DNA from: Candidatus Saccharimonadota bacterium
GTDB lineage: Bacteria > Patescibacteriota > Saccharimonadia > Saccharimonadales > OFTM59
Direction: 5' to 3'
NCBI GenBank assembly: GCA_029260875.1
Contig: JAJDCL010000017.1
Span: 813-64,812, forward strand
DNA: 64,000 nt
Shown here: one piece after another, positions 1,790 through 43,853 of the stretch
How the letters are laid out: every line of letters starts with the position of its first letter
Numbering within the stretch: the first letter of the stretch is position 1
Made by a program: the position numbers and the translations under genes
Notes under the pieces: generated by a model
Databases searched by the model: none
Seen by the model: the letters and a program-made list of their open reading frames with translations, nothing else
What the model was told of the DNA's origin: nothing

Positions 1790-2500
1790 ATGTTCCTCAG
1801 GTATGCCCAGTCCAAGTCAAATTTGTTACTCATGAAAGAAGTCAGAGACGTGAAAATACATTGGCTGATGGTTCTCATGTTTGCAACCGCATTTGGACAG
1901 GTCTTCGGTGGTGTCGATAAGTCCGGTCGGGTCGGCGTCAAGAAGTGCACCGATACGTTTGCCTTTAGCCGTGTGCACAACACCAAGACGGACGACCCTC
2001 ATCTGAATAGAGCCATTCGATTTTCGAGTCTCACCTTGTTCGGAGATGACATTGAGTATCCGGAAATAGCCGCCTTTGGTAAGCGGGCCGATTTGGCTGC
2101 TGCAGAAAAATTCGATACGCAATATATAGATCAAGAGTTTGATGGCCTAAGTGGCTTCAATTGCATGAAAGGCCGATTCCAACTACCCGACCAAGCCAAG
2201 TTCAATCGACCCGACCCGATGCGCGACTGGAGCTGGCTCCAACCCCATTCGATAAACCTTTATGAATATGTCGGAAATGACCCGATAAATGCCTGGGGTC
2301 CGACAGGATTTGAGTTTAACGTATTAGATCTTGAGGATCATAATCTCGATCTAATGTTAGACGAGCTATCTCAAATTACGGGGTATACACGTGACTTCAA
2401 GACAACTGACGACGGGAGCACCATTCCGTTGGGAATATATGTTGATGATGACGGGAATGTTCAAGTTGCCGAAAACGCGGCTTTTGAAGACGGGTCATAG
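1790..2500 (+). CDS. small secreted protein with a degenerate RHS-repeat-associated core junction and a short C-terminal tip
   Basis: Signal-like hydrophobic segment (IHWLMVLMFATAFGQVFG). GRFQLPDQ..RPDP...NLYEYVGNDPINAWGPTG resembles the GRFxSxDP...NLYxYxxNNPxNxxDPxG end of Rhs/YD cores. About 75 aa of unrelated tail follow. Confidence 0.5.
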   Translation: MFLRYAQSKSNLLLMKEVRDVKIHWLMVLMFATAFGQVFGGVDKSGRVGVKKCTDTFAFSRVHNTKTDDPHLNRAIRFSSLTLFGDDIEYPEIAAFGKRADLAAAEKFDTQYIDQEFDGLSGFNCMKGRFQLPDQAKFNRPDPMRDWSWLQPHSINLYEYVGNDPINAWGPTGFEFNVLDLEDHNLDLMLDELSQITGYTRDFKTTDDGSTIPLGIYVDDDGNVQVAENAAFEDGS

Positions 2501-2675
2501 ACATCAAGAGATTTCTTGAAAAACGTAATAGAAAGCGATTTTTCGACTTTTGTCACCAACACAAAACCTTCCGAGAAGAAAAAACTTGCGCGCGCTCGCT
2601 TAGGCAGTGACGGAAATCCATCCCCAATTTTGAGAGGCAGTGCAGGTGACTATAGACAACTGATTTAGGCAATTT

Positions 2676-2706
2676 ACACCGGTACACTTTTATGTTGTCA
2701 AACGCA
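2676..2706. repeat. 31-bp direct repeat, left copy (acaccggtacacttttatgttgtcaaacgca)
   Basis: Perfect 31/31 match to 7627-7657 in the same orientation. The flanking sequences are unrelated. Confidence 0.9.
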
Positions 2707-2926
2707 TTGTCTAACCTGCCCTGACCCTCCACATTACAAAGATGACCAAGATTATGAAAAGACTTGCGTTTGAAACATATTTCTTGGACGTTGGGGGAAG
2801 GTGATCTGTCGGCTCCGTTTAGGAGTTCTCGAAACAGCTTGCATTATTGAATGCATGCATCAAATCATAACCTCAATATTTGTTGCGGGTTGGCCTTATC
2901 TTCGCTGGCTCAGATGGGACTAAATC

Positions 2927-3874
2927 ATGCACGACGAAGTCAACCGATATCTAGTTTTTTGTGACGATGTTCGCTCACTGTCAGGTCACACAATAAGAGC
3001 CTATCAGTCGGATCTGACCATGTTCATCAAATACGCATTTAGTCTTGGAATTAGAACGTCTTCTGAGATCTCAAAAGAGACTGTAAATTCGTTTGTCTCG
3101 TGGCGCAAAGAAACGGTCATCGCATCACGAAAAAGATATCTATCGAGCATTTTGGGATTTTTCAAATGGTTAACTCACGAAAATGTTCTGAAGGCAAACC
3201 CGTGTTCGGGGATAACAATCCGAGACCCGAGGAGGCGAGTATTACCTAAGTTGTTAAGCCGATCTGAAGTAACCAAATTGATTGCATATGCGTCAAACAA
3301 CTGCGCAACTCCGCCTGCCAAAGAGTGGCCGTCAATTCGTGCTGACGAATTAATGACGGATCAATACCGGACAATTATTTGTACGTTGGGATTGAGGTTC
3401 CTATATTATTCCGGAACCAGAATTGGAGAAATGGTGAGGTTGCCTGTTTCCTCGATCGATTTTCGAAAGGGAAGCGTGCTCATTTCCGGAAAGGGCAAGA
3501 AAGAAAGGGTTATCTATTTTTGGGACAAGGCTTTCCAGACTGATCTTCGTCACTACGTCCAACTTAGGAACTCTCTCTCATCGAATGAGGGTGCCTTGTT
3601 TTTGAGACAAGATGGAATACCCGCTTCTGACCAGTTTTTCAGGCGGCATTTTGGGAATTTGGGAAATGAGGCATTAAAAAAGAAAGTAACCCCACATATG
3701 CTCCGCCACTCCTCTGCTACTCACTTACTTGAGGATGGGGTTGATATCCGGGTTGTACAGAGGTACTTAGGCCACGCAAGTATAAGTACAACAGAAATTT
3801 ACACGCACGTTGCAGATGAATTTCTGAGAAAAGAAATGGCGAGAGTGGCACGTAAACGTGCCGCAAGGGCGTGA
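2927..3874 (+). CDS. tyrosine recombinase / integrase (XerC/XerD-like)
   Basis: C-terminal catalytic signature HMLRHSSATHLLEDGVDIRVVQRYLGHASISTTEIYTHV, an earlier GTRIGE box, and an N-terminal core-binding-type domain. Its TGA stop (3872-3874) lies inside the 27-bp inverted repeat. Confidence 0.9.
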   Translation: MHDEVNRYLVFCDDVRSLSGHTIRAYQSDLTMFIKYAFSLGIRTSSEISKETVNSFVSWRKETVIASRKRYLSSILGFFKWLTHENVLKANPCSGITIRDPRRRVLPKLLSRSEVTKLIAYASNNCATPPAKEWPSIRADELMTDQYRTIICTLGLRFLYYSGTRIGEMVRLPVSSIDFRKGSVLISGKGKKERVIYFWDKAFQTDLRHYVQLRNSLSSNEGALFLRQDGIPASDQFFRRHFGNLGNEALKKKVTPHMLRHSSATHLLEDGVDIRVVQRYLGHASISTTEIYTHVADEFLRKEMARVARKRAARA

Positions 3875-3898
3875 TTGATAATTAGGAATTATCTGTTG
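3872..3898. repeat. 27-bp inverted repeat, left arm (tgattgataattaggaattatctgttg)
   Basis: Perfect reverse complement of 7435-7461. It contains the TGA stop of the recombinase gene, then TTG and 7 further codons (MIIRNYLL). Confidence 0.95.
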
Positions 3899-5029
3899 CG
3901 AAGAGCAATATTTGAAGAATTGTTGTCCGGTCTCCACACTTTTGGACCGTACTGCAATGAATGTGGGGTAATTGCAGTAATTAATGTTGTCGGCCTAACC
4001 AACACGACAAAAGATTACGTTGGCTTTAGCGTACAAAACAGTTTCTTAACAGACGACGAGATTGACGAATTCATTAATGGCTGGCGGGCTTTAGGAGTTT
4101 ACGTTCAGCATTTTTCAGAGGAACGCGATTTTATGTCGTGGGTACTCTCTGGCGGATATCAAACGCTTAGAATTGCAAACAAATTTGTTTATACATCAGC
4201 TTTGAATGGAATTGGTCCAGGGCGTCGAGCTCTTATTCCATCTTTTTGTAATTACTTCGGGATTCCGACATTGAATTCGGACCCCTATGCATGTGCGATT
4301 AATCGGCATAAATTTCACTGGACACGCTTGCTCTCCACGTTTGGTATTCCCGTACCTCGAACATGGTGTCTTTCAAGTAATGGCGGCTGGGAAGATGGGC
4401 TAAAGCCTCCACAAGGAACTCAGGTCATCGCAAAGGCGACATACGAGGGCAGTAGTTTGGGTGTAAGTGAGGACAGTAACGGGACATTTGATACTAGACT
4501 TCATGACACCATACGTGAATTGGCGAATACGCTTAATCAACCGATTACCGTTCAGGAATTGATCCCAGGATTCGAGGCCGAAGTTCCCGTTATTTTCTTA
4601 GACAGGCACGTATCACTTGGCACAGCATTTCTCTCTATCAACGGTTCCGTCAATTTAGAGAACACCATTCTCACGTATGACACAGCCGCTGAGAATCTTT
4701 ACAGGTACACGACCGAAACTCACTTGCCAGGTGCTGTGCCTTTAAAGCTGTCGGCGATTGCCGAGCGTGTTGCTGGAATTATGAATTATGAAGGAATAAG
4801 TAGAGTGGACTTCCGAGTCACGAAGAACGGTACGCCATATGTGATCGACATTTCCAGTACGCCTCATTTAACTACAAACAACGCCGTTGGGTTTTTGTTT
4901 ACGCAGGCTGGACTTGAGTATCGTCAACTACTTTCTTCATTGCTATTTTCGACAATTAGAAGTGGAAATTACTGCTACTCGTCAGACCAAAATTCCAACT
5001 CAGATGGTAGAAACCCTCCGCGAAAGTAG
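3875..5029 (+). CDS. ATP-grasp fold ligase (D-Ala-D-Ala ligase-like)
   Basis: VIAKATYEGSSLGVS, VQELIPGFEAEVPV and GISRVDFRVTKNGTPYVIDISSTPHL match the ATP-grasp phosphate-binding, central and Mg-binding segments. It is in the same frame as the recombinase, separated only by TGA. The TTG start lies inside the IR. Confidence 0.7.
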   Translation: MIIRNYLLRRAIFEELLSGLHTFGPYCNECGVIAVINVVGLTNTTKDYVGFSVQNSFLTDDEIDEFINGWRALGVYVQHFSEERDFMSWVLSGGYQTLRIANKFVYTSALNGIGPGRRALIPSFCNYFGIPTLNSDPYACAINRHKFHWTRLLSTFGIPVPRTWCLSSNGGWEDGLKPPQGTQVIAKATYEGSSLGVSEDSNGTFDTRLHDTIRELANTLNQPITVQELIPGFEAEVPVIFLDRHVSLGTAFLSINGSVNLENTILTYDTAAENLYRYTTETHLPGAVPLKLSAIAERVAGIMNYEGISRVDFRVTKNGTPYVIDISSTPHLTTNNAVGFLFTQAGLEYRQLLSSLLFSTIRSGNYCYSSDQNSNSDGRNPPRK

Positions 5030-7458
5030 ATCCAACCTGGACCGACCAAATGAGACTGTTTTGTTGCGGCATATGAAGACCAATCTAATGCCTGGTTTGC
5101 TTCGTGGAATATGCCGGTAATAATTTCGTGGCGCCTCCTATAGTACATTTCGTTTGGACCGATCAGCTCTCCGAGAAAAGTGCCGGCCAACTTCCAGTGC
5201 ACAAGAGCTTGGTCACGATCGCCTAGCATAAATCTGCATCCCGCAATATTATTTTCGACGTAGTAATGGTAAAACCCATCAAAATCGCTCTTCAGCTTGA
5301 GCTGTTTTTCAACAGGAAGAAGTATTTTTAGGGCCCTTTGATATTCGCCTCCTACTGCCATTGCCCATGCAGCGTTGCTGACAATTAGAGATCTATCATT
5401 TGTTAAATCTGATTTCTTTGCCAAGCCGAGGAAATGACTTATCACATCACCTCTAGTTATCTTGCGGGCAAAGTAACCTGAAATTATCAGATTATTGACA
5501 AGAATGTCCATCCGCGGAAATACAAATGTACGATGATTTGAGACAACTTTCTTCCCTTGAAGGGCGGCGGAGTATGCGGATTCAAAATCTCCAGCCACTA
5601 TTCGATTTGCGGACAGATTTGTATGGCCGATGTAGGCGTGAACTGGGTCATAGGTGGGATTTCCCTCAGTAGAGGCGAAGTAGTCAATTGCCTGAAGAAT
5701 TCTCTCACGTGCTACTTCCGATGTGTGTAGCATATTGGCTTTCAGCCTGATACGGTTCAATAAATCGTTAGAGCTAGGATCGAAACCGAATCTTGCTTTC
5801 AATCTTTTCATAAGCAACCGCTCTGCACGCGCGGCCCTCGTTGTGTCTCCAAGAAAAAAGCACGCCACTATATAGTAAATCATCACCCTCCCCCAAACCT
5901 CAAACTCCTGAAGATCAACCTCAGCCCAGATGCTAAGGATCTCAACAGCGTTGCGTCTGTTAAACAAAGTAAGCAGCTTTATGTGGCTTCGAGCTTTGAG
6001 AATATCTCGTTCCGCGAGGAGCGAATCGGTGTATAAGTCCTCTACACTGTCTAGGAATATAAGCGCTTTTCTGTACCTCCCTGTATTGAAAGAGCACCAT
6101 GCTTGATTCATTTTCTCCAGAAATATCTTGATGCCAGGCACTAGTCCAAGAGTTGTAGCACTTATATCTACTTTCCTCCCGGATCTTTGTTCACTCAAGA
6201 AATCCAAGGCAAGAGCCTCAGAAACTCTCTTGTGGTCTTTCGCCTGACCAAGATGATAAGCGCGTCGTCTATATTCTCCTGGGCTAAGCAAACGTAGACA
6301 CTCTGCGAATTTCATGTTCTGTTCCACATGCCCAGCTTGGTTCTTTGTGAAAAAGAAATCATGAATCAACTCATGCGAAAAACGTCGTTCATTTCCTGAT
6401 TCAATAACTAATCTCATTGTCTGTGCAGGCCTCAAGATTTCTCGTATGTTCGAAATCGATAATTCGGTCAAGCATGAAAGTTCATTCTCAGAGAACGTCT
6501 GGCCGATAATTGAAGCCGATCGGAGTATGCTAATTGTCGAGTCGGCAGGCAATCGAAGTCCATGTAGGCGTTGCTCGATGAGTTCTTTTAAGAGGAAAGT
6601 CTTGTCAATTGATTCCTCGTCTAACAGTTGTGTTCCTTCAATAGCGTTTTTGCCCAATTGACGTGCAAATTCGAGGTGGCCACCGCATATACGATACAGA
6701 TCCTTAGGTAGGCTGGAGCCCGACCCAAATTGCAATCCGAAATCCCTCAGAATCTTCTCGAAGTATTCCTCGCTACAGAATCCCAGGCGGTAAGTCGCTT
6801 TGCAGTGCTTCTTTAGGAGGTCATTCATGATAATTGGTTCAGAAACTGGGCAGTCTTCGGTATCTACGACGAGAACAACCATATTTGCCAACTGAGGGAA
6901 AGCAGCATGTACTACCTTTTCGAGCATCATCGAAAGTAGCTCAAGTGACGCTTTGTCCCACCATTGGATGTCGTCACATATCAACAAGAGTCGCTGATTC
7001 TTGGCCAGAGAGCAGAGTTTAGCTAGTAGCCCTCTTTCAGTTTCAGAAAGGAACGGTGCCATAGACATTCTTCGGCGATCCGGGCTCTTCGATATATAGT
7101 GGAGTAGTTCACGGATGATTTTGCCAGCTAAAGGCAATGCTGCAGTCGATTCAATTATTGTGTTTTTTGCTGCATTCAATTGCTGACGTGCACTCTCGGA
7201 TACTACGGCTAAGTGTAGTGCATAAAAACTTCGATGACTCTGAATTTTGTCGCCTAAAGAGAATAGCGAAGAGCCGATATTTTCTTGCCATTTCTTTGCC
7301 AGAGCGTGCGCTAGCCAACTCTTGCCTGCTCCGCTTGGTCCAGTCAGTCGCATTAAAAGCCGTTTATTGCTTGAAAGCCTGCTGAATATTTCAGAGAGTA
7401 TTTCTGTTTGACCGGTAAGATCAGCTACTGAATCCAACAGATAATTCCTAATTATCAA
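4975..7458 (-). CDS. STAND/AAA_16-type NTPase with a long C-terminal helical (TPR-like) repeat region
   Basis: Walker A LTGPSGAGKSWLAHALA and Walker B LLLICDDIQWWD, followed by about 550 aa of helical repeat-like sequence. The TTG start and first 8 codons (MIIRNYLL) lie inside the right IR arm. Its 3' end overlaps the ATP-grasp gene by 55 bp. Confidence 0.7.
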   Translation of the reverse strand: MIIRNYLLDSVADLTGQTEILSEIFSRLSSNKRLLMRLTGPSGAGKSWLAHALAKKWQENIGSSLFSLGDKIQSHRSFYALHLAVVSESARQQLNAAKNTIIESTAALPLAGKIIRELLHYISKSPDRRRMSMAPFLSETERGLLAKLCSLAKNQRLLLICDDIQWWDKASLELLSMMLEKVVHAAFPQLANMVVLVVDTEDCPVSEPIIMNDLLKKHCKATYRLGFCSEEYFEKILRDFGLQFGSGSSLPKDLYRICGGHLEFARQLGKNAIEGTQLLDEESIDKTFLLKELIEQRLHGLRLPADSTISILRSASIIGQTFSENELSCLTELSISNIREILRPAQTMRLVIESGNERRFSHELIHDFFFTKNQAGHVEQNMKFAECLRLLSPGEYRRRAYHLGQAKDHKRVSEALALDFLSEQRSGRKVDISATTLGLVPGIKIFLEKMNQAWCSFNTGRYRKALIFLDSVEDLYTDSLLAERDILKARSHIKLLTLFNRRNAVEILSIWAEVDLQEFEVWGRVMIYYIVACFFLGDTTRAARAERLLMKRLKARFGFDPSSNDLLNRIRLKANMLHTSEVARERILQAIDYFASTEGNPTYDPVHAYIGHTNLSANRIVAGDFESAYSAALQGKKVVSNHRTFVFPRMDILVNNLIISGYFARKITRGDVISHFLGLAKKSDLTNDRSLIVSNAAWAMAVGGEYQRALKILLPVEKQLKLKSDFDGFYHYYVENNIAGCRFMLGDRDQALVHWKLAGTFLGELIGPNEMYYRRRHEIITGIFHEANQALDWSSYAATKQSHLVGPGWIYFRGGFLPSELEFWSDE

Positions 7459-7461
7459 TCA
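7435..7461. repeat. 27-bp inverted repeat, right arm
   Basis: caacagataattcctaattatcaatca is the exact reverse complement of 3872-3898. Confidence 0.95.
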
Positions 7462-7472
7462 AAACTACGAAT

Positions 7473-7481
7473 ATTCTATCA
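7473..7481 (-). promoter_or_regulatory. candidate extended -10 element (TGaTAGAAT) reading into the right IR arm
   Basis: The minus strand reads tgatagaat, 14 nt upstream of the TTG at 7458. I saw no clear -35 or Shine-Dalgarno. Confidence 0.25.
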
Positions 7482-7619
7482 CAGAATTTGGGTATCCATA
7501 ATTAGTTTCGAATTGTGACTTAGTTCCCAAATCACCACTTTTTGTGCGATACACATTTCGCTCGTTATTGGCTCCTTAGAGTAACGGCTGTCTTTTTTAA
7601 CCTAGGTGGGACACTTTTA

Positions 7620-7770
7620 CATGATCACACCGGTACACTTTTATGTTGTCAAACGCACTTGGTTTACGACTTTGTCGGGCGCTATCACCACACACCACAC
7701 AAAGGCTTGGCCGGTTACACACCCCACCAAGCTTCTATCGGCGACTGGATTCAAGCCTTTCACCACCGCC
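7620..7770 (+). pseudogene. remnant of a DDE (rve-type) transposase C-terminus
   Basis: Translation ...LVYDFVGRYHHTPHKGLAGYTPHQ resembles the YNxxRPHxxLxGxTP tail of IS481/IS3-type integrase-fold transposases. No upstream catalytic domain is present. Confidence 0.4.
7627..7657. repeat. 31-bp direct repeat, right copy
   Basis: Perfect match to 2676-2706. It lies within a DDE-transposase C-terminal remnant. Confidence 0.9.
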
Positions 7771-8515
7771 AGCGTTCCTTGGATGACTCTTACCGAAGCC
7801 ACTCTTCACGATTTGCCTATCCACGACTCGCGAAACCCTTACCCAATCACGTCTCAATCAATATCCGACAATTAGTGCACAACGAACAACTCAGTGGCCC
7901 GAACATACATACCCTTTTGGAGATCCAGTAGTTCACACCCCAAAAATCAGCCCAGAATCCATCTCTACACATATGGGCAAAAATGCAAGTTTGGGGCGAG
8001 TTGGTTCGGAGAAACGCGCTCAAAGAAAAACGTGGTTTGTCAATTTGAAGCAAGCGATCGTTGAATAACCGTCGATTAGGCTTAGCGACTTAATGTCAAA
8101 AATTTTCAAGCAAAATTATGGGCCTATGGGATCACCAATCTACGGCGAGCCAATAGTACCAACTGTTTAGGGGCGAAGTCATGTAAAAGAATTTCCAGTT
8201 TCATAATGGTCCATAACTCTAATGGGATAGGTTGAATCAACGACATTAGGCAGATTTCGACGCATCGGCACCCAAAATGTGGTCATCGAAGACTATTTAC
8301 GTCGGACACGCCAACTGTTTGTAGACGGTGTTAACACCGCCAAACACAAGGAGTGTCATTATGCTAGAAAATCTGATCCTAATACTTAAGCTTGTCTACT
8401 TGGTTGAGAGCGTTTGGCAGATCTACTGTCGCGTCAGAGCGAAACGAAGGGCAAATGAAGAAGAGAGCAAAGTTCAAAATCCGGGAATCCTCTCAAGCGA
8501 CCGAACCCCCCAATG

Positions 8516-8985
8516 TGTCTCTACCCCGAATCGAAGGACAGTGTAAGTTTTATGCGGCGGACCTAGCGATTGCTTGTTCATATTCATTGGGCGAGATGTC
8601 GCCCAATGAATGATGGATTCGGATCGGGTTATAGAACCCTTCGATGTAGTTAAATACAGCATGCTTGGCCTCAAGACGGGTTGCGTATTGCTGGCCGTAG
8701 ATCATTCCGTTTTCATAGAGCCAAAGAAGCTTTCCATTGGCGCATTATCCCAACAGTCGCCCTTCGCACTCATACTTTGTTTGAATCCCCACCCTTTGAG
8801 TTTCATACGCAAGGCGTAGCTCGCGTATTGGCTTCCACGGTCGCTGTGGAAAATTAGGCCTCTACCCGGGCAACGCCTCCGATACGCCATATTCAAGGCG
8901 TCTATGACCAGTGACTGAGTCATTCTTGGTTTCAGTGACCATCGACATTTCAAGATCATCGTTGGCTGTTTCGTCCGCATGCCAC
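8516..8985 (-). mobile_element. IS3-family fragment: 3' part of orfB plus terminal inverted repeat
   Basis: The terminus TGTCTCTACCCCGAATCGAAGGACAGTG at 8516 recurs at 14401. The coding remnant is listed separately. Confidence 0.75.
8550..8980 (-). pseudogene. IS3-family transposase OrfB, 5'-truncated and frameshifted
   Basis: [10 protein letters not shown]...[23 protein letters not shown], then a stop. A shifted frame continues [43 protein letters not shown]...AA*. Confidence 0.8.
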
Positions 8986-9270
8986 CTAATATTTTCGACC
9001 GTCCATTCGTTTCGGAACATTAGACCCTAAACGTTGATCCTGACACCTACAGGTGCACGTTCTTAGACCAATCAAGGTCGTACTGTGGAGATAGACCTCC
9101 ATTCTGCGAGAATCGTCGCAACTGTTGTCATGAAAGAGAATCTGCATCACAATGAACGTGATCCTTCGCTTCGAGCCTCATTTTCTGGAAAAGAAGATGA
9201 GAGAAAAATCCTAGAGAATCATACAATTCGAGGCCGAGAAAATAGACAAAATTGATCGAGGATAACATTT

Positions 9271-9837
9271 TTGAGCTGTGAAGAACCTCACGAACAAATC
9301 ATAACAGAGGGCGAATATTGGAAGCACCTTACGGCACTCGAGCTGGACTCGAGTGCACGATTTGACAAAAATCTGGTGACGTTATCTACAGGGGCGCTAG
9401 GTGTGTCCCTGATATTTCTCCCAAGGATTGAATCCAGTGTGATTCTGTTGTGGCTAGGAGTGTCTTGGATCCTACTGACAATTTCACTCGGATTGAGCCT
9501 TTACTCCCATCTAACAAGCCAGTGGACAGCACAGGCTTTACTTAATGAACTAACAGACCAACATGCTAATTGTCGGTGGAGTGGAGTGACAAATTGCCTG
9601 AATAAATGGGCGTTTTGGACGTTTGTTTCTGGCGTAGTAATTATGTTGGCTTCGTTCCTTATTAGTGTTGGGATGCAAAACATCAAAAGTGCTAGTGTCG
9701 AATTGAGACCAATGATCAAGGAAAACGTATCGATATTTAAGAACGATGAGGCTGTTCAAGAATCAGGAACGGAGGGAAGAGATGAGCAACCACCAAAAGG
9801 AAGGACCGACGCCTTCAAGGAAGCCACGAAAAGGTGA
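9271..9837 (+). CDS. hypothetical membrane protein (about 3 predicted TM helices)
   Basis: Hydrophobic segments LGVSLIFL, VILLWLGVSWILLTISLGLSLY and WAFWTFVSGVVIMLASFLISV, with a charged C-terminal tail. TTG start. Confidence 0.45.
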   Translation: MSCEEPHEQIITEGEYWKHLTALELDSSARFDKNLVTLSTGALGVSLIFLPRIESSVILLWLGVSWILLTISLGLSLYSHLTSQWTAQALLNELTDQHANCRWSGVTNCLNKWAFWTFVSGVVIMLASFLISVGMQNIKSASVELRPMIKENVSIFKNDEAVQESGTEGRDEQPPKGRTDAFKEATKR

Positions 9838-10039
9838 GTTTGGGGCAGAACCACCCAAATTCCCGGTTAGACCTAATAACAACAACGATAAGCAAAAACT
9901 TCCTCGCGGCTAGGACTTCTTTGGCGCGAGCGCCATTTTGAAATGTTATGTTTTACGAATAGCACAAGTTGTTTATCACTAGATACTTACGTCCGATAAT
10001 CTTTATTATGTTAACTTATGGGTTTGGCTACCACGCCAT

Positions 10040-11632
10040 TCACTCGACGGTGCCTTGACCTATCTGCGAAGCACTCGCGGCCGTCTGTCGACCGTGGCCA
10101 GTGGGATACCACACGTCGATATACTTTTGAATCGAGGATGACCACAATTTGATTATCTTCTCATGGATCGGTGTGGCCGTAGCGTCAATATGCTTGCTGT
10201 ACAAGTAACAGGCATGATCACAAGATTCCGACTCGAAAGCATCCCACCCGATTCTTTCGAGTCGACTCAGTCTTGCAAGGACGACGATTTGTCGCTGCCC
10301 AAGTACATATGTCACGATCATCTCCCATTTTGGCAGGTTTCTGACACTTGGAGTTGCGGTGATCGTGAGGTCACGCCAAGGCCCTTCTTCGGTACGTGAA
10401 AACGAAATCACACTGCTTGATTTTTGATACAACGCTTGAATAAACAAATTTCGTATCGATTGCAACCGATAAGCAAGAGTGGAGTCTCTTCTGACTTTGG
10501 CGCGCAAACGGTCGACTTCTTTGTCCGATAATCTATTTCCAGCAACATCTACGTAGAAAGACTCTCTCTTGAGCTTCAAGAAAAGTTTTGGGATGTCATT
10601 GTCCTGAAACCACTGGCAAAAGTAAGAATCACCATAAATCAAAGAAGCGGACTGGTCATCTATTGACAAGTCGTAACACGACGCAATTTCGCTTTCAAGC
10701 CGTAAAGAATCGAAGTTACTTCTTAGCACCGACAAGTAATTGTTCGCTTCATCTTGCTTAAAGTACATCTGTTCATCGTGGTGGATTCGCGATGTTATCG
10801 ACGGAGCTTCGTGTTGGTCTTCGCTTGGCAATTTTACGCCGCCTATATAGGGTATCAGTGCATTGCGCAATTCAATGGACACTGGTACGAATTCCACATT
10901 TATGTCGCTCTGGCACACCCAATGAGGAGTTTGCGAGTATTTTTGAAATTTGTCTTGAAGTGATTTTACTAAATCTGGGTACGTGAGTGAGTCCTCTACA
11001 AAGGTGGCAACACTATCTACCAGGTGATGCGTAAATAGAGAAAGTTGATTAATACCGTCCGGAGGGTAAGGGCCACTTGAACCCTGGTCCCACCGCGACG
11101 AGGAAAGGAAATACAAGGAATCAAGAGCGGGTGAAGGATCGTTTCGAAGATCTCCTCCCCTGAAATGGTCTGTACCCTTGATATAGTTTGTTCCACAGAA
11201 ACAGGAATCGATTATACGGCAATAAACCTTTGGCTGAACGACACGTATCCAATCGTCAAGTTCAGTTAAGCTGATTGATGTCGACCTTTCACGGTCATAA
11301 ACAAATTGCCGTAGTGCGAAAGCGTATTCATTGTCGACACGCGTTCCATGTCCCGATAGATAGATGACAATGTCCCCTACGTCCTGTTTTAGATACGCAT
11401 GAAGAAATCCCCGAACTTCCTTTTTCACGCTTGGCGCTGATTTCAAAGTATCTGGTACCAATATGTTTTCCTCTGAGTACTTCCCCGAATGGACCAGCAA
11501 GGTTTTCATCGCCTTCACATCGTGATTGCAGAACGGCAGATCGATCTCGTGGTCATACTTTGAGACACCAACAAGGACACCTATATTCACGTTAACTCCA
11601 ATAGTCAATTGTACTAATTTTTCACAGGACAA
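10040..11632 (-). CDS. caspase-like (peptidase C14) protease with an uncharacterised C-terminal domain of about 330 aa
   Basis: VGVSKY...HDVKAM, a catalytic His context IVIYLSGHG and a catalytic Cys context RIIDSCFCG, in the order and spacing of the caspase/metacaspase fold. Confidence 0.7.
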   Translation of the reverse strand: MSCEKLVQLTIGVNVNIGVLVGVSKYDHEIDLPFCNHDVKAMKTLLVHSGKYSEENILVPDTLKSAPSVKKEVRGFLHAYLKQDVGDIVIYLSGHGTRVDNEYAFALRQFVYDRERSTSISLTELDDWIRVVQPKVYCRIIDSCFCGTNYIKGTDHFRGGDLRNDPSPALDSLYFLSSSRWDQGSSGPYPPDGINQLSLFTHHLVDSVATFVEDSLTYPDLVKSLQDKFQKYSQTPHWVCQSDINVEFVPVSIELRNALIPYIGGVKLPSEDQHEAPSITSRIHHDEQMYFKQDEANNYLSVLRSNFDSLRLESEIASCYDLSIDDQSASLIYGDSYFCQWFQDNDIPKLFLKLKRESFYVDVAGNRLSDKEVDRLRAKVRRDSTLAYRLQSIRNLFIQALYQKSSSVISFSRTEEGPWRDLTITATPSVRNLPKWEMIVTYVLGQRQIVVLARLSRLERIGWDAFESESCDHACYLYSKHIDATATPIHEKIIKLWSSSIQKYIDVWYPTGHGRQTAASASQIGQGTVE

Positions 11633-11740
11633 GTGCTAAAACATGCGGATGTGACGCCATTATAGACTTCCCCAATCTGAAAGCTACGATGAAGCCACAA
11701 CGACAGAAATCCGGTGCCCCCCGATGATTGGGAAATCAAA

Positions 11741-12847
11741 CTAAAGTTGGTACAAGATAACTAGGAAAATGAACCCTGCAATCAGTAGAGTCGCACAACC
11801 TGATTTATTGGTCGACCTTGCAATAGATTTGCTAACTTGCAGTAATTCACGGTTCCAATTTACTTCCCAATTGTCTGGAACATCGAATACGATCGAAATC
11901 GTCTCACTACGAGCCTCCGCACCATCCTCGACGTTGGCGTTCATCCTTGCTATTTGGTCAAGTTGATCAGCTAAATCAGCAACCTTGTTAGCATGAACGC
12001 TAGTTGTATCGCGAAGCAACGCCAATAGTCTTTGATAATTATCCGATACCAACACAAATCGCACAGACTCCTCGAAGTTGATAACTTGTTCAAACCAGCG
12101 ACCGATCAGACATGTAGTATGACGAATTTCGTCAGCATCTCCCGGCTCTCCAGGCAATCCCCAGCTGTTGTTCAAGCGCGTAAAGAGTTTAGTAATTGGG
12201 GTTATCATTTCCGATAGCTGAGATAACCGACCACGGATCCACGTCAACGCATTGTCGTCTTCTATAGGTATTTGCGGCTTCACATAATATCCTCCACGTA
12301 GGTCATGTAGCCGTCTTATGAGCGGACTGTTGTAGTGACGCATTAATTCGGCCGTCAACCTATATTCCCATGCAACTGGTTTATCAATGATGATTCGTCG
12401 AATAAGCGGTGGGAACTCCATGAATTGAGATAGTTGAATGGACAATTCGTCCTTGAGGATACGATCAGTGGCATTGCCTAACTCCGACAGAACGTATACT
12501 TCATGTGACTCTCGCCAGGTAAACAGTACAAAGGCCGAGTAATGGTTTTCTGAGTCAATAAGCTTATGGCAGTTTCGACACAACCAAAGTCCATTTGTTA
12601 TGTCCGCACGAGATTGATCGGTCATATTGGGATCAAATCTCATTGCGTTGGGACGTGCCCCAAAGATATGGGCAGCCTCACCAATCAACGTTGCCTTTGT
12701 CGGTATCGAGTTGGGCCCAACGGTGGTGACTCGGCAATCAGGATTTGAACACCTAAATGCTGCCCGCTTTGCGAGAATGTCAATTGTACTTTTGTTAAAA
12801 TCAGGATACATTGCGGAAATTCTACATCGTAAATGTAAGTAGACCAA
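11741..12847 (-). CDS. HNH-like nuclease-domain protein with a C-terminal transmembrane anchor
   Basis: CSNPDC...GEAAHIFGARPN...NGLWLCRNCHKLID (Cys4 HNH pattern) at the N-terminus, a helical middle region and a terminal TM helix (ATLLIAGFIFLVILYQL). The start is possibly ATG 12811 (MYPDFNK). Confidence 0.6.
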   Translation of the reverse strand: MVYLHLRCRISAMYPDFNKSTIDILAKRAAFRCSNPDCRVTTVGPNSIPTKATLIGEAAHIFGARPNAMRFDPNMTDQSRADITNGLWLCRNCHKLIDSENHYSAFVLFTWRESHEVYVLSELGNATDRILKDELSIQLSQFMEFPPLIRRIIIDKPVAWEYRLTAELMRHYNSPLIRRLHDLRGGYYVKPQIPIEDDNALTWIRGRLSQLSEMITPITKLFTRLNNSWGLPGEPGDADEIRHTTCLIGRWFEQVINFEESVRFVLVSDNYQRLLALLRDTTSVHANKVADLADQLDQIARMNANVEDGAEARSETISIVFDVPDNWEVNWNRELLQVSKSIARSTNKSGCATLLIAGFIFLVILYQL

Positions 12848-13171
12848 AGTTATGCCGTTGCCTTACTAGGCACGTGCTTATCGAGGAAGGTGATCGCACT
12901 TGCCAAAAGGGATTGATATCCATGGAGGGCAGCTGGTTGTTCCTCGTGGCATGTCCGACATCAATATAGCGGCGCGTCTTGATCGGTGCTTGGCTTCTTT
13001 TTGCTTCAATTCGGGTCGCAAATTTAAGTTCGATCCGATGATTTTGGTCGCCGATCCCCCTAAACTGATATTCAAGTCGGCGCTAAATAGATGGACTTTC
13101 AACTCCATGATGCATTCACGGTAACATAGCTATTCTGGACAAATGGATTGAAGGAAGCGACAGTGAGGGCA

Positions 13172-13990
13172 CTAACGAAAAAACAATGATCCCGGACGTC
13201 TGCTGATACCGTCACAAATCACGATGCCTCCAGTCCACTTTCCATTAATGTTGTATCGATACTGAAGGTTCCTGATTCTACTCGAAAACTTACTTTTAAT
13301 TTTATTGTAGTCTCGAATATGAACGCTGGAAATATGTCCTTTGCAATACGATTCGATAGCGATTGGACTGACAATTGCTGAAACCAAGAGATCCGCTATC
13401 TGTAGACCTGCATGATTGTTGCTGTGGCCAAAAACGGGCATTTCCCGCATATTATCTAAGCTGTCCCCAGCCGCTTGATATTTTTGTGTGAAAACGCTAT
13501 GGGCAACCGATGTGTTTAAATATTTATTTCGACTGTCGGCTATGATAAATCCTCGTTTAGAATAATATTTCATCATGTCTTGAAAAGCAGAGCAAATGGA
13601 TTGAACTGACGACGTGTAAATGGCTCTGCCATCGAACTTTGCAGCGATTGGCTTAACCCAAACCCTGCCAATCAATTTCATTTGATAACGTTCTGCAAGA
13701 CGTACAATACAATCTAAAAACCAAATTGCCGCACGGCGTCGCGAACTGGATCCAACAGCGATATCCTTACGTAGATCGGATCCCTTTATTTCCCAATCAA
13801 TTAAATCTAAATACCGATACGGACGGCCATGCCGTCGGTACTTCTTTTTTAGGTCCAACACAGCGAAAGTGACTTTACGGAGATCTCTTTCCTGCATCAC
13901 CAATCCCAGTATTGAAAATACAGGCTCTACATTTGAGATTGCCGAAGGCAACTCTCCGGGGCAGCCAGCTTCATCAAGGTACAGGATCAT
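13172..13990 (-). CDS. DUF3800-family protein
   Basis: N-terminal MILYLDEAG (the hhhDExG motif) and a distal LQIADLLVSAI, both typical of DUF3800. Confidence 0.6.
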   Translation of the reverse strand: MILYLDEAGCPGELPSAISNVEPVFSILGLVMQERDLRKVTFAVLDLKKKYRRHGRPYRYLDLIDWEIKGSDLRKDIAVGSSSRRRAAIWFLDCIVRLAERYQMKLIGRVWVKPIAAKFDGRAIYTSSVQSICSAFQDMMKYYSKRGFIIADSRNKYLNTSVAHSVFTQKYQAAGDSLDNMREMPVFGHSNNHAGLQIADLLVSAIVSPIAIESYCKGHISSVHIRDYNKIKSKFSSRIRNLQYRYNINGKWTGGIVICDGISRRPGSLFFR

Positions 13991-14271: not shown

Positions 14272-14400
14272 TAGGCCCAGTGTCCCCTAAGCCGCGATAG
14301 CCGCCAATCCTCAGACTAAATTTGTCTCCCAGTTCAGTCTCTTATACATCTGAGCAGATAACACTAGAGTAAATGTGACTCAGCACAGAATCCATCTCTA

Positions 14401-14554
14401 TGACTCTACCCCGAATCGAAGGACAGTGTAAGTTTTAGGCGGCCACTTCAACGGTTAATCTTGTATTCATTTCCAGCACAAATATTTCATAAGGATTCAC
14501 ATGGGAGTACATCAGCGGCGTCAATGCTCTGAAGCCTTCCATTTCTATTCCAAT
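14401..14554 (-). mobile_element. second IS3-family terminal fragment (terminal IR plus a short coding tail)
   Basis: 14404-14443 matches 8519-8558 (34 bp perfect, 39/40 overall). The terminus begins TGACTCTACCCCGAATCGAAGGACAGTG. Confidence 0.6.
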
Positions 14555-16034: not shown

Positions 16035-16440
16035 TCAAGGAAAATGCGTTGTTTGCAGAGGCACGATAGTTTCCGGGTTGAGGATCTGGGTTTGTCGATT
16101 CGCGCTCTCAAGTGAAATGTGAGTCAGGTCCTCGTGCCAGACTACCCACCTGTTAAGGATACTACACGCCGTTAAATTTTGTGCATTGCTCAGGTCGCTT
16201 TTAACTGTTGAGAGGGTACGGCTCCCTCCGAGGCTCATCAGATAGGCAGGAATCACTCCTGCCGATGATAGGGAGTCGTTGATGAGCTTGGCTCTTGCTT
16301 CGGCTTTCAGAATATCCGTCTTATTCAGCCGTGATTTCACTTCGATCCATGCGCGGACACCTTCAAGGAAGAATCCCTTGTCATGATCTGTAAAGGACAA
16401 GAGTGGAAAGCGAGCATCATAGATCACAATGTCGTATTGG
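16035..16440 (-). pseudogene. 5'-truncated gene fused behind the truncated tnpA (possible PD-(D/E)XK-like fragment)
   Basis: The reading frame continues out of the tnpA junction. YDIVIYD...EGVRAWIEVKSRL has a D...E.K-like pattern. Weak. Confidence 0.25.
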
Positions 16441-17517
16441 CCTGCATCGACACTGATCAGCCTCAATGGCGGCGAACGGATCTGTTCCGGTCTGCTTGGC
16501 TTGTAGCAAGGCTCGCCCGATCCGTGAGTAGAGTCGCACCTTGTCGTTGATCGCTCTGCCGTCTTTGTGAAACCGTTCGACATGGCGGCGTTTCGCGCGG
16601 CTAAAGAGAGCGCTGAGCACGCGACCGTGGAGATCGATTGTCTCGTCGATCAGTGTCGCCTGTGTGTCGAGCGTGATCGCGACTAGGGTGGCGTAGCGCC
16701 GAATAGGCTCCAGGTCACGAAGGTGCTGGGCAGTCATCTGCCCTCCTTCGCGGGCAAGCTTGAGAAGTCTGTTCTGGTGGGCAGCATGTTGCAAACCATC
16801 AGGTAAGCTGATGTCACGAATTACCTCAAGGCGCGAGATATGGGCGAGGATATGCTTGGCATTCGGCGGTCCTGGAGACTGGCGCAGCCAAGCGAGACTA
16901 CTCACTTTGGAGTCATCGCGTATCGACAGCAAACTGTCCAGAGCGCGGCAGTGGTGTTCTGCCAGCGGCTCAGTCAGGGCTTCGTAGACCAGGCGAGTGC
17001 CAAGTGTCAGGGCTTCAGCACAGAGGCGGTCGATTACATCGACCCCGGGTATTATAATGTGCTGTTGACGCAGCATCTTCACCATGGCTACAGCAAGCAC
17101 GATACCGCGGTCAGTTTGCTGGGCCAGCTCGGAAAGCCGGTCCACCATGCAACGGTAATCGAACTGACTAAAGGTCGACAGATTAAGCCATGCCTGTAGC
17201 TCGATAAGATGTTCACGCCGCGTTTCCGCCCGCTGCGCGTATTGTTGCCAGATAGACACATCCACGCCCAACTGCATAGCGACCAGTGCAAGCAAGGAGG
17301 CTGGTGGTTCTGCGTCGGTCGGTAGTGAGGAGCCGGGATAGCGCAAACAGCAGAGTTGCACCGCAAACCCAAGTCGGTTGTGGCTCCCGCGTCTTTGGCG
17401 GATCGTTGACAGATCGGATTCGGTGAACGAGTAGTAGCGGATCAAATCATCGTCGGTTGTCGGAAACGCCAGTATCATTTCTCTCTCAGCAGCGTTGAGC
17501 AAACGTCGGCGGGGCAT
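16417..17517 (-). pseudogene. tnpA: Tn3-family (Tn21-like) transposase TnpA, N-terminal about 360 aa only
   Basis: MPRRRLLNAAEREMILAFPTTDDDLIRYYSFTESDLSTIRQRRGSHNRLGFAVQLCCLRYPG is the DUF4158 N-terminus of Tn3-family transposases. The DDE domain is missing. This patch is visibly more GC-rich than its surroundings. Confidence 0.85.
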
Positions 17518-17520
17518 CGA

Positions 17521-18081
17521 TCACTTGTCCATCTTGAGGTACTGGTAAACGGTCTCGCGACTAATCCCGAACTCTCGGGCAAGAACAGCCTTTTGTTCAC
17601 CAGCAGCAACACGATTGCGTAGCTCGTTTGCTCGTTCACTGGAAAGCGCCTTCTTGCGGCCACGGTACGCGCCTCTCTGCTTGGCCAACGCGATCCCTTC
17701 GCGCTGCCGCTCACGAATTAGGGCCCGCTCAAACTCAGCGAAGGCGCCCATCACAGACAGCATGAGGTTCGCCATCGGCGAGTCCTCCCCTGTGAACGTG
17801 AGACTTTCTTTGACAAACTCGATTCGTACGCCGCGCTCGGTGAGGGTCTGAACGAGACGTCGGAGGTCATCCAAGTTACGCGCCAGACGGTCCATGCTGT
17901 GCACCACCACGGTGTCGCCTTCGCGCACAAAGGTGACGAGGCGCTCAAGCTCGGGGCGCTTGCTGTCCTTGCCCGAAGCCTTGTCGGTGAAGACCTGGTT
18001 CACCGGGACATGCTCTAACTGACGCTCTGATTTCTGGTCGATGCTGCTGACCCGCACATAGCCGATGCGTTGACCCGCCAT
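17521..18081 (-). CDS. tnpR: serine recombinase, Tn21-type resolvase TnpR
   Basis: MAGQRIGYVRVSSIDQKSERQLE..., DRLARNLDDL and a C-terminal HTH (REFGISRETVYQYL). It sits immediately upstream of tnpA on the same strand. Confidence 0.9.
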   Translation of the reverse strand: MAGQRIGYVRVSSIDQKSERQLEHVPVNQVFTDKASGKDSKRPELERLVTFVREGDTVVVHSMDRLARNLDDLRRLVQTLTERGVRIEFVKESLTFTGEDSPMANLMLSVMGAFAEFERALIRERQREGIALAKQRGAYRGRKKALSSERANELRNRVAAGEQKAVLAREFGISRETVYQYLKMDK

Positions 18082-18093
18082 GCCGTACTCCAA

Positions 18094-18230
18094 TCGATCT
18101 GTCAGGAAAGACTCTAAAACCCTACATGGGTCGTGTCAATAAATTAAAATCCGAAGCCTATTCTGACGTGATTGGTGGTGATCCCTGACGCCAAGTTAGC
18201 GTATACCTCATTTAGACGCCATCCAATGGC
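18094..18230. promoter_or_regulatory. probable res / tnpR promoter region of the truncated Tn21-like element
   Basis: The call rests on position only (between the tnpR start and the terminal IR). Subsites were not resolved. Confidence 0.35.
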
Positions 18231-18268
18231 CTTAGCGTACGATATTTTCCGTTTCGTGAGCGGACCCC
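18231..18268. repeat. Tn3-family 38-bp terminal inverted repeat (outer end at 18268)
   Basis: CTTAGCGTACGATATTTTCCGTTTCGTGAGCGGACCCC is the reverse complement of the GGGG...ACGCTAAG pattern of Tn21-group IRs. Confidence 0.8.
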
Positions 18269-18484
18269 TCGAAGCTCAAAGTGATCGTCAAACGGACGTT
18301 GCGGCAATTTGGGTACCCGCCCGATATGCAGAAACTGGCGACCGAAACAGTCTTGAAGCAGGCGGAACTGATTGCGGATGAACTAACGACAGGTGCCTAA
18401 GCGGTACCCCCCGAGTTTAATTGCATACTCTAGCTTGGAGACTATCCGAGGCGAGAAAGATACACATTTGCATCGTATTTCCTA

Positions 18485-24020: not shown

Positions 24021-25039
24021 TCTTGATACCTGTCCTTGATAGGCCTTGAATTTTCTAAATAGCTGATAAATTGAGATAATGCACCACTGTGGTCTATCTC
24101 CCCATTGAGTGGCGTCATATCAATCGTAGAAACTCCTTCTTTCTCGAGCAACCGGCGTTTTGACCGAGAAAACTCTAACCCTACCAAATAGACAGGGAGT
24201 TTTTTGTTATCCAGTACATCTCGAGTCCATCCTAGCCAGGCTGAGAAATTGGGATCATCTCCTGAGAACCCAACCAGGACAAATGCGTTTTGAATTAATG
24301 CCTGACGTACCGTGTTCACAAAAACCGGATAATCTTGTGGATATTTCCGAAAATTCTCTTTTGTCATCACGAAGGGTGTTTCACTAGGTAACGATCCATG
24401 GAGTTTAATAATTCTTGGAGCAGCAGCGTAAGTCAGTTCATCAGGTTTCGTAATAGGAGAGTATCTTCGTTGCGCGTGCGTTCGTTCCAACAACGTGTCG
24501 TAGTTAGTAGTGAACACATCGACCCATGGCAGATTAAGCAAACGAGTATGTAATTGGGAGGGTTCAAATTGGTTATCATCAATCATCTTCCGTATTTTTT
24601 CCCAAAGCCTATTTTCCCCAAACACCGCTGCGTACTCGCTGGCAATGGTTGTGGGATCAAAAGTTTTTTGTGACGTGTTGTACCCAAGTTCACACGATAG
24701 CGTTTGAACAAGTTTATTCCATCTTGGCATTCTCTTTGATGAGCACGAAGAATGGCGGGAGTTCATGCTAAAACCCGCTCCGACCATTAGCGCGGCACGA
24801 CGCGGGGAATGCCATAGGTATTCGGATAGCGTCTTGAGGTGATTATCGTCAGCTGAGTTGGTATTTGGCTTGACAGTCACATGCACACCAATGGCGAAAC
24901 TAGTATAGGAGTGGCTGAATGGACGTCGGCATTTTGTCTCGATTTCCTGGAAAATGCCAACCTGAAAAGTGGGATTTACAGATACACAAATAGAGTACCG
25001 GTTTTTCTGGTTTTTTGCAAAATCATGATTGTCCTGCAT
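24002..25039 (-). CDS. SIR2-like (SIR2_2 family) putative NADase
   Basis: LMVGAGFSMNS, VDVFTTNYDTLLERT, IIKLHGSL and FVLVGFSGDDPNF match the four conserved blocks of the defence-type SIR2_2 family. The true start may be downstream of 25039. Confidence 0.75.
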   Translation of the reverse strand: MQDNHDFAKNQKNRYSICVSVNPTFQVGIFQEIETKCRRPFSHSYTSFAIGVHVTVKPNTNSADDNHLKTLSEYLWHSPRRAALMVGAGFSMNSRHSSCSSKRMPRWNKLVQTLSCELGYNTSQKTFDPTTIASEYAAVFGENRLWEKIRKMIDDNQFEPSQLHTRLLNLPWVDVFTTNYDTLLERTHAQRRYSPITKPDELTYAAAPRIIKLHGSLPSETPFVMTKENFRKYPQDYPVFVNTVRQALIQNAFVLVGFSGDDPNFSAWLGWTRDVLDNKKLPVYLVGLEFSRSKRRLLEKEGVSTIDMTPLNGEIDHSGALSQFISYLENSRPIKDRYQEWPNIS

Positions 25040-29616: not shown

Positions 29617-32742
<3,126 letters not shown>

Positions 32743-33565: not shown

Positions 33566-34206
33566 GAAAAGGAAACGACGTGAAAAATATCAACATTCCC
33601 GCAACTGAGGATCTACCCACGGTGAGAAAGCTCGTCAAATCAACCTTGTCAGCAATATTAGTCGCTGCCTTTATTCTAGTAGCCGCTGTTCTTCCAGCCG
33701 AGTATGGAGTAGATCCAACTGGAATCGGACGTCTCATTGGGTTGAAAAGGATGGGAGAAATTAAGGTCTCGCTTGCTCAAGAATCTGAAGATGATACACA
33801 ACTAGAACAAGAACAGATGCCAGAGAATGGTGAGCCTCAACTGACCTCACCATCAGAATTGGTGTCGAAAGCCAACCCGCTTGGATCTCCCAGTGACGAA
33901 ATGACAATAACTCTTAAGCCGAATGAAGGAAAAGAGATCAAGTTGTCAATGGAAAAGGGTGCTCAAGTAAATTACGTTTGGTGGACAGATGGCAGCAAAG
34001 CAAATTTCGATGCCCACGCAGATTCAAAAGAATTGAATATTAAATATCACAATTACGAAAAAGGCGCAAAACCGCGTTCGGAAGGTGTACTAGAAGCTGC
34101 CTTCGATGGACAACACGGATGGTTTTGGAGAAATCGAACTGCTGGAAATATGACTGTTACCCTAAAAGTAAATGGTCAATATACAGATATTGGTCTGGTG
34201 AATTAG
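33562..34206 (+). CDS. hypothetical membrane-anchored periplasmic protein
   Basis: Single N-terminal TM (LSAILVAAFILVAAVL), an acidic linker and a beta-rich C-terminal domain. It overlaps the HupE-like gene, and its stop abuts a Tn3-type IR. Confidence 0.45.
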   Translation: MRKGNDVKNINIPATEDLPTVRKLVKSTLSAILVAAFILVAAVLPAEYGVDPTGIGRLIGLKRMGEIKVSLAQESEDDTQLEQEQMPENGEPQLTSPSELVSKANPLGSPSDEMTITLKPNEGKEIKLSMEKGAQVNYVWWTDGSKANFDAHADSKELNIKYHNYEKGAKPRSEGVLEAAFDGQHGWFWRNRTAGNMTVTLKVNGQYTDIGLVN

Positions 34207-34242
34207 GGGTCGCCTCACGAAACGGAAAAATCGTACGCTAAG
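34206..34242. repeat. Tn3-family terminal IR (outer end at 34206)
   Basis: GGGGTCGCCTCACGAAACGGAAAAATCGTACGCTAAG is about 34/38 identical to the reverse complement of 18231-18268. Confidence 0.8.
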
Positions 34243-34591: not shown

Positions 34592-34690
34592 AGGGTGCCA
34601 CGAACATTCGTGCGTAAATATACGCTAAGGATTATCGCCCCCCTCCGAAAAAGAGTGGAACAACACGGATGCCCCGGTAATCATCTGGCT

Positions 34691-35320: not shown

Positions 35321-35341
35321 ATCTCCAGTCCGTAAAGACAT

Positions 35342-35452
35342 AATGTTTAAAACTGCTGGTAATTATACACGACAAGTATCATTTATAGAGTCTTATTGAT
35401 ACCTATTCTGTGTATATAATAACGTTCGTTTTTTCTTATACAATCACGGACC
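35342..35452. promoter_or_regulatory. probable res site / divergent promoter region
   Basis: AT-rich intergenic region between the divergent tnpR and tnpA. It contains aacgttcgtttttt, which recurs in palindromic form at the relic near 50456. Confidence 0.45.
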
Positions 35453-43838: not shown

Positions 43839-43853
43839 CGCATTCTCCTTTAA

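Follow-up and report, generated by a model that had tools for sequence, protein, structure and literature searches.

We analysed a 64,000-nucleotide (nt) stretch of a contig from a Candidatus Saccharimonadota bacterium (JAJDCL010000017.1, positions 813 to 64,812, GenBank assembly GCA_029260875.1; hereafter the window), in which a tyrosine recombinase gene and an invertible segment of two genes are bracketed by two identical copies of a 31-bp direct repeat, here referred to as R. An initial annotation, made from the sequence without database searches, took the two copies of R for the attachment (att) sites attL and attR of a small integrative element and proposed that its target may have been an insertion sequence (IS). 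Below we describe the cassette and its inversion sites, and then weigh what the bracketing repeat may represent.

The cassette and its bracketing repeat

The features of the cassette and its right border are, from left to right:

2676..2706, plus strand: left copy of R, exact match; candidate attL core or insertion junction
2707..2926, plus strand: leader from R to the recombinase gene, with the R-related motifs TTGTCTAAC (2707-2715) and inverted TGCGTTTGA (2765-2773)
2927..3874, plus strand: XerC/XerD-like tyrosine recombinase of 315 amino acids (aa), with the Pfam domains Phage_integrase and Phage_int_SAM_1
3872..3898, plus strand: left arm of the inverted repeat, 27 bp, holding the recombinase stop codon, the core GATAATTAGGAATTATC, AGGA and the TTG of the adjacent gene
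3896..5029, plus strand: Ddl-like ATP-grasp ligase, 377 aa, with a TTG start at 3896 (mechanical open reading frame, ORF, from 3875)
4975..7437, minus strand: STAND-type ATPase, 820 aa, with a TTG start at 7437 (mechanical ORF from 7458)
7435..7461, minus strand: right arm of the inverted repeat, 27 bp; inversion site
7462..7626, minus strand: spacer from the far inversion site to R, with a degenerate R-like copy, GGGACACTTTTAC, at 7608-7620
7627..7657, plus strand: right copy of R, exact match; candidate attR core or insertion junction
7658..7931, plus strand: right flank, a C-rich ORF remnant with a YHHTPHKGLAGYTP motif and no profile or homology match

Exact search and the repeat listing (direct-repeat family D5) agree with the initial annotation on a perfect pair in the same orientation. 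R (ACACCGGTACACTTTTATGTTGTCAAACGCA) occurs exactly twice in the window, at 2676-2706 and 7627-7657, both times on the plus strand with 0 mismatches, and the spacing of the copies, 4951 bp, is the size of the unit. No third copy is present in the window at up to 3 mismatches, and none of 100 dinucleotide shuffles of the window matched R, which excludes a chance origin of the repeat. When 2400-8700 was compared with the window by blastn at word size 7, the identity between the copies ended exactly at 31 bp on both sides, in keeping with the claim that the flanks outside R are unrelated, and the same sensitive search found no partial third copy. Degenerate copies were absent at up to 11 mismatches from the window and from every relative locus that we fetched, and the additional 700 nt of the Logan contig L011 hold no further copy. 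Exact R was likewise absent from the genome, metagenome and viral contig collections in 31-mer scans, and a distant DNA search with 2300-8100 gave no match among plasmids. The geometry first described also holds: 220 nt separate the left copy from the recombinase ATG (2927), and 165 nt (given earlier as 166) separate the outer end of the right inverted-repeat arm (7461) from the right copy.

Between the copies of R lies one complete module, consisting of the tyrosine recombinase gene and a 27-bp inverted repeat pair that encloses two convergent genes. As had been proposed, the invertible two-gene segment is the sole cargo: R encloses this three-gene module and nothing else, apart from a non-coding leader of about 200 bp at each end of the module. 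The recombinase matches Phage_integrase (PF00589, 1.6e-36) and Phage_int_SAM_1 (PF02899, 5.2e-14) and aligns over both domains with E. coli XerD (1a0p, residues 16-302, E=5.9e-31). The catalytic R, K, HxxR, H and Y are kept (GTRIGE, GKGKKER, HMLRHSSATH and LGHASISTTEIYTHV align with the XerD motifs), and the enzyme is intact. The NCBIfam XerC and XerD profiles match it at about 1e-59, but its bit scores, 200.6 and 198.8, stay below the equivalog cut-offs of 335 and 330, which makes it a paralogue of the Xer type and not XerC or XerD itself.

The 27-bp inverted repeat opens with the stop codon of the recombinase as its first triplet, and both cargo genes start at a TTG on the inner edge of that repeat. 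An AGGA motif that resembles a ribosome-binding site lies within the repeat, 8 nt upstream of each cargo start, and products of 377 and 820 aa were also called on independent assemblies, the 377-aa product on Logan contigs. The ligase matches Dala_Dala_lig_C (Pfam, 4.7e-16); the ATPase (exact product P0122, 820 aa) matches AAA_16 (4.8e-13), gives weak NB-ARC matches and has a long C-terminal region. The two genes overlap convergently by 55 nt at their 3' ends, and convergent overlaps of about 52-55 nt occur in the window and in the related loci L004 and L006 described below. Exact copies of the cassette proteins are found only in one 71.6-kb NCBI contig and in the Logan assemblies of SRR15505512 and SRR15505513.

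Within the leader, a sigma-70 scan called no promoter in 2707..2926. A 10-bp perfect palindrome seen by eye, ATGCATGCAT at 2853-2862, about 65 nt upstream of the recombinase ATG, is a possible operator. On the opposite side of the cassette, an extended -10-like element, TGATAGAAT (minus strand, 7481-7473), which was read by eye and not called by the sigma-70 scan, could drive the gene at the far end.

Inversion sites and relatives of the module

The recombinase together with the invertible STAND/ATP-grasp pair is a rare module family that is conserved across phyla. The STAND ATPase has only nine homologues among 5.8 billion proteins, and its relatives were absent from the genome and viral contig collections, with one partial locus (L009) in the metagenome contigs. 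Seven other loci with a linked recombinase were retrieved (L004, L005, L006, L008, L010, L012 and L013), all of which carry a conserved core, ATAAYYRRGRATTAT, obtained by aligning the family sites. Together with one locus that has the cargo genes only, they are:

L004 and L005: recombinase and 26-bp inverted repeat, two orientations of one locus; L004 adjoins an IS3
L006: 28-bp inverted repeat, neighboured by Wadjet JetD and a ParE toxin
L008: recombinase at 6912-7823 and at least two repeat pairs with the family core, shufflon-like (6846-13575)
L010: plasmid pMRAD01 of Methylobacterium radiotolerans JCM 2831 (NC_010510, 401104-405562), 17-bp inverted repeat; the single cultured carrier found
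L012: a GC-rich genome, core GATAACTAGGAATTATC
L013: a Logan contig that is only the segment between its repeats
L007: the two cargo genes, with neither recombinase nor repeats

The inverted repeat of the window (3872-3898 and 7435-7461) is perfect over its 27 bp, and the family core occurs in the window only at these two sites. The core also hits every repeat pair of L004, L005, L006, L008 and L010 and nothing else in those loci, and the repeat listings of L012 and L013 show the same core. Natural inversion of a homologous module is shown by L004 and L005, which derive from separate metagenome assemblies; their DNA is 100% identical except that the 3.6-kb segment between the 26-bp repeats is reversed with respect to the two flanks.

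At the window's own locus, the Logan assemblies of SRR15505512 and SRR15505513 break at the inverted repeat. One contig (L002) stops at exactly 3898, a further break at 3901 overlaps the next contig, which starts from 3872, and L003 corresponds to 3872-7464 of the window, that is, to the invertible segment alone. These graphs are presumably built at k=31, with which the 30-nt overlap of L001 and L003 agrees. The 27-nt inverted repeat is shorter than k-1, yet contigs break there, which implies that the reads hold both orientations; by this assembly-graph logic, the breaks suggest that both orientations are present at the locus itself. The conserved core, the reversed segment in L004 and L005 and the Logan breaks together establish inversion as what the recombinase does in this family. 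What is found here is what an inversion switch comprises, namely perfect inverted repeats, a conserved asymmetric core, a recombinase encoded nearby, and both orientations.

The cassette is, on this evidence, a self-contained inversion switch, whose recombinase acts on the two 27-bp inverted sites that bear the cargo start codons and the ribosome-binding-like motif. When the 3.6-kb segment flips, the ATP-grasp ligase and STAND ATPase genes trade places, one coming to lie directly downstream of the recombinase gene and the other to face the leader on the far side.

The module occurs in unrelated neighbourhoods (L004, L006, L008, L010 and L012), which indicates that it is acquired as a unit and moves horizontally. 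On pMRAD01, its genes are annotated as an ATP-binding protein, a D-alanine--D-alanine ligase and a tyrosine recombinase, with TIR and IS5 genes as neighbours; other plasmids were searched for an empty site of this Methylobacterium module, where the flanks proved to be mosaic and uninformative. In L008, the repeat pair CATAACTAGGAATTATG (9968-9984 and 13559-13575) encloses the STAND/ATP-grasp pair, while a UbiA-like gene and two unknown genes lie within another, CACATAACTCTGAATTATGATGCG (7999-8022 and 9792-9815). The module was not found among the PADLOC models, nor was a description of the combined recombinase and STAND/ATP-grasp genes found in the literature searched.

Origin of the direct repeats

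Our preferred, if tentative, explanation is that the copies of R are the junction repeats of an inserted, acquired cassette of about 4.95 kb. Identical direct repeats bracket the element and the recombinase gene lies beside one of them, as is expected of attL and attR. R is moreover not a product of chance and encloses exactly one module that is found elsewhere in unrelated contexts, and an insertion bounded by R is therefore the simplest history. A further point comes from short near-matches to 9-mers of R in the 80 nt next to each copy. The cassette-side flanks hold 4 on the left and 6 on the right, numbers reached by 1.6% and 0.4%, respectively, of random 80-nt windows drawn from the same sequence in this post hoc test, and the two outside flanks hold 0. 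Sub-motifs of R on the cassette side only are the pattern that would be expected if R had once been contiguous with both inner flanks in an attP-like region.

In such an insertion, a circular or otherwise excised copy of the cassette would have carried a single R within a structured non-coding region (7600-7626, R and 2707-2776). Campbell-style recombination with an identical or near-identical sequence in a defence island rich in mobile elements could then have left one R at each end of the cassette, in attL-like and attR-like positions. The repeat, the module, its conserved inversion core and the natural inversion of a homologous module are shown directly by the sequences; that the repeats arose by site-specific insertion is inferred. 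A transposon with a target-site duplication was rejected: no terminal inverted repeats lie inside R (there is no inverted similarity between the sequence running from 2707 and that running up to 7626) and the cassette encodes no transposase, both of which make a target duplication of the transposition type unlikely.

The identification of R as a pair of att sites in the initial annotation finds support in part. R is indeed real and non-random, brackets one self-contained mobile module and is accompanied by related motifs on the cassette side; set against this are the relatives, the make-up of R itself and the nature of the target. Sequence is available on both sides in five relatives (L004, L005, L006, L010 and L012), and none of these shows a flanking direct repeat above chance. 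The longest words shared by the outer flanks of L004, L005, L006 and L010 are 9-11 nt, compared with 12-16 nt in shuffles; the repeat listings of L012 and of L008 show no flanking direct repeat, and a search for R-like sequence near the relatives' modules gave nothing significant. R lacks the family recombination core ATAAYYRRGRATTAT, is not palindromic and shows no dyad symmetry by eye, and it forms no hairpin (folding z-scores are positive; single-strand structures of the attC or IS608 type were looked for). Set by eye against the dif consensus of E. coli, a 28-bp site in which XerC and XerD arms surround a 6-bp spacer, R was rejected as a dif or pdif site: it shares only TTATGTT, and the XerC-arm position matches at 3 of 11. 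The 315-aa XerD-like enzyme has no extra arm-binding domain to explain a second specificity, nor does it have a close homologue (best 40% identity).

The target points the same way. A tRNA or tmRNA target was rejected, R lying in neither and the window containing none of either kind, and att cores do not usually share as much as 31 bp with a target that is not conserved. The outer flanks, when joined as a reconstructed empty site, restore no transposase or other gene and no longer ORF. No empty site, circle junction or second insertion site was found, and R is absent from all three contig collections.

The accompanying claims, that the right copy of R lies within the C-terminal remnant of a DDE transposase and that an IS may have been the target, are not supported by any profile or homology search. 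The ORF at 7542-7931 matches no Pfam or NCBIfam transposase even at E<=10, has no homologue among 5.8 billion proteins and no PDB match, and resembles the C-terminus of IS3 OrfB only in a single, weak pairwise BLASTP alignment (E=0.01); joining the flanks, as noted, restores no gene. A genuine IS3 rve remnant does lie further right, on the opposite strand (about 8550-8980, minus). Its end (8516-8558) recurs at 95% as a solo end at 14401-14443. A second copy of the 21-mer that adjoins the solo end (14380-14400) lies at 7947-7967, some 550 bp from the IS end, which suggests an insertion or rearrangement within the IS flank. On the left, the cassette is flanked by the end of an orphan RHS core-plus-toxin ORF (TIGR03696), followed by non-coding DNA. 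This ORF (1790-2500, 4.4e-9) comprises an RHS-associated core and a C-terminal tip and lacks the long RHS body. Within it, at 2193, the Logan contig L011 stops for reasons unrelated to R; this points to a branch of the graph within a conserved stretch of rhs or to toxin tips that differ between strains.

Among the alternatives, the copies of R could be inert scars that this recombinase did not make, in which case it would be purely an invertase and the cassette would now be fixed. We regard this as unlikely, but as deserving serious weight: the site used by the family recombinase is the inverted-repeat core, which R lacks, the relatives have no flanking repeats, and rearrangements are frequent in surroundings pieced together, as here, from IS3- and Tn3-family elements, resolvases and defence genes. 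Such scars might stem from an integrase acting in trans, from short-homology recombination into an existing copy of R, or from a duplication followed by a deletion. These two-step models are, however, less parsimonious than an insertion, and they do not predict R-like motifs on both cassette-side flanks. Nor was a second integrase gene found among the ORFs scanned near the cassette, where only serine resolvases occur, from 17.5 kb on.

That the cassette's own recombinase made the repeats, or can still excise the cassette through them, seems rather unlikely on the present sequence comparisons. It is less likely than the insertion-junction explanation as such, because the conserved site of the family differs from R and the relatives lack such repeats. 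The more ambitious version, a minimal self-mobile inversion switch of a new kind in which a single XerD-like recombinase both flips the cargo at ATAAYYRRGRATTAT and integrates or excises the 4.95-kb unit at an unrelated 31-bp site, so that two specificities couple phase variation to mobility, we consider improbable.

A third possibility is that R is a short functional or dispersed genomic sequence (for instance an operator, part of a promoter or a small interspersed repeat) and says nothing about mobility. In the recombinase leader, the left copy does have related motifs around it (TTGTCAAAC, TTGTCTAAC and inverted GTTTCAAAC), which resemble a set of protein-binding sites, the reverse strand of R contains a perfect TTGACA hexamer, and the genome was examined over 64 kb only. 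Yet those 64 kb hold no more than two copies, L011 adds none over its extra 700 nt, both copies are perfect with sharp ends, and R is neither palindromic nor structured. No promoter or terminator was called within either copy, no Rfam family matches at R, and the chance that two dispersed copies would enclose exactly one module is low. We find this explanation doubtful.

The Logan contigs L001 and L002 both begin at 2677, which makes R a branching 31-mer node in two independent assemblies; at k=31 no 31-mer spans the 31-bp R, so that integrated, excised and empty forms look alike in these graphs. It is nevertheless very improbable that the arrangement is an assembly artefact, that is, a wrong path through a shared 31-mer which joined, for example, a free circle to an uninterrupted chromosomal site or two unrelated loci sharing R. 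In its favour, the contig is metagenome-derived, the exact proteins come only from one NCBI contig and the Logan assemblies of two runs, and linkage across the branching node has no independent confirmation. Against it, the identity of the copies is nothing that an artefact could produce, which means that R occurs in two or more real contexts, the variant with a circle and an empty site would support att function instead of refuting it, and common metagenome assemblers end with k well above 31, so that reads spanning 31 bp resolve the path.

Genomic setting and comparison with known systems

The window as a whole is a mosaic of mobile and defence genes, in which the acquisition of a further cassette is unsurprising and rearrangement scars are also plausible. 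To the left of the cassette, an M78 peptidase (867-1679) matches the PADLOC capP model (1.2e-46); in the CapH/CapP pair, which regulates CBASS-type defence, CapP is the protease. The peptidase could have its partner in the small ORF upstream (524-922), and no CBASS genes were identified among the ORFs scanned. To the right, a candidate defence run (10040-13990) consists of a caspase-like Peptidase_C14 protein (10040-11632), an HNH protein (11741-12847) that matches PADLOC PDC-M68A (1.3e-23), and a DUF3800 protein (13172-13990). A Dsr2-like gene (21300-25039, minus) is split between two ORFs that overlap: 24002-25039 holds the SIR2 part (PADLOC Dsr2, 2.6e-102) and 21300-24020 the remainder (1.1e-57); the split could reflect a frameshift, a pseudogene or a sequencing error.

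Two Tn3-family transposons (34587-38400 and 52711-55978) have 43-nt terminal inverted repeats that are 95% complementary. The first encodes a resolvase (34691-35341) and TnpA (35453-38362), the second TnpA (52755-55859). Truncated TnpA fragments and two more resolvases (16417-18093 and 56000-57932) bring the resolvases to three in all, and solo Tn3-type ends lie at 18228-18269, 34205-34245 and 57344-57382. One Tn3 resolvase region shows about 75% identity to plasmids of proteobacteria. A 78-nt direct repeat (94%) links the start of a Tn3-family tnpA (35418-35495) with an intergenic position 15 kb away (50451-50528), where it is probably a stranded transposon fragment. Interleaved with the transposons is a heavy-metal resistance cluster (27053-32742, 39095-49561 and 51479-52779) with two oppositely oriented czcCBA-like RND operons and with genes for a CDF transporter, a P-type ATPase, an HMA-domain protein and a MerR regulator.

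If the copies of R were working att sites, the cassette would rank among the smallest self-contained integrative elements, with a recombinase and a flip-switch for two candidate immune genes as its whole content, and it would illustrate how switches of this type travel among defence islands and plasmids. Taken alone, the repeat is plausibly an ordinary insertion signature. More notable than the repeat is the conserved invertible STAND/ATP-grasp pair, a candidate defence pair with its translation starts placed inside the recombination sites; the module has a cultured carrier in M. radiotolerans (pMRAD01), which makes it experimentally testable.

Small integrative elements and genomic islets of the tyrosine-recombinase type are bounded by attL and attR direct repeats of a few tens of bp. 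The cassette is similar in that a discrete unit lies between perfect repeats, the first gene inwards from one of them encodes the recombinase, and an accessory, defence-like cargo sits in a variable island. It differs in that its target is neither a tRNA nor a conserved gene, R lacks a recombinase-type dyad, the short XerD-like enzyme has a different family site, relatives are without flanking repeats, and neither an empty site nor a circle was observed.

The cyanobacterial elements that are excised during development, the nifD element (XisA) and the hupL element (XisC), are also flanked by short direct repeats and have a tyrosine recombinase gene near one end, whose product excises them. Unlike the cassette, whose reconstructed empty site restores nothing, they interrupt a gene that is restored on excision.

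XerCD/dif-dependent elements (IMEX) and the pdif modules of Acinetobacter plasmids (PMC6863613) offer another comparison. Shared features are a Xer-like recombinase, an inversion core with dif-like inner half-sites (ATAA...TTAT), and small modules that move between plasmids and islands. R itself, by eye, has only the TTATGTT heptamer in common with these sites and no XerC-type arm, and whereas pdif modules use the host XerCD and inverted site pairs, the cassette encodes its own enzyme.

Inversion switches driven by tyrosine recombinases include the R64 shufflon (Rci) and the fim switch (FimB/FimE), and known switches of this kind are not usually bracketed by direct repeats. The invertons of Type I restriction-modification hsdS genes also belong here (PMC7672463, PMC9881135). 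As in these three systems, a tyrosine recombinase is encoded next to short perfect inverted repeats with an asymmetric core, and both orientations exist in nature; like the shufflon, the relative L008 carries several sites. In contrast to all three, the unit that is flipped consists of two complete, unrelated, convergent genes instead of a promoter or alternative 3' gene segments, a fixed pair without a recombinase also occurs (L007), and the start codon and ribosome-binding-like motif of the cargo lie within the repeat itself.

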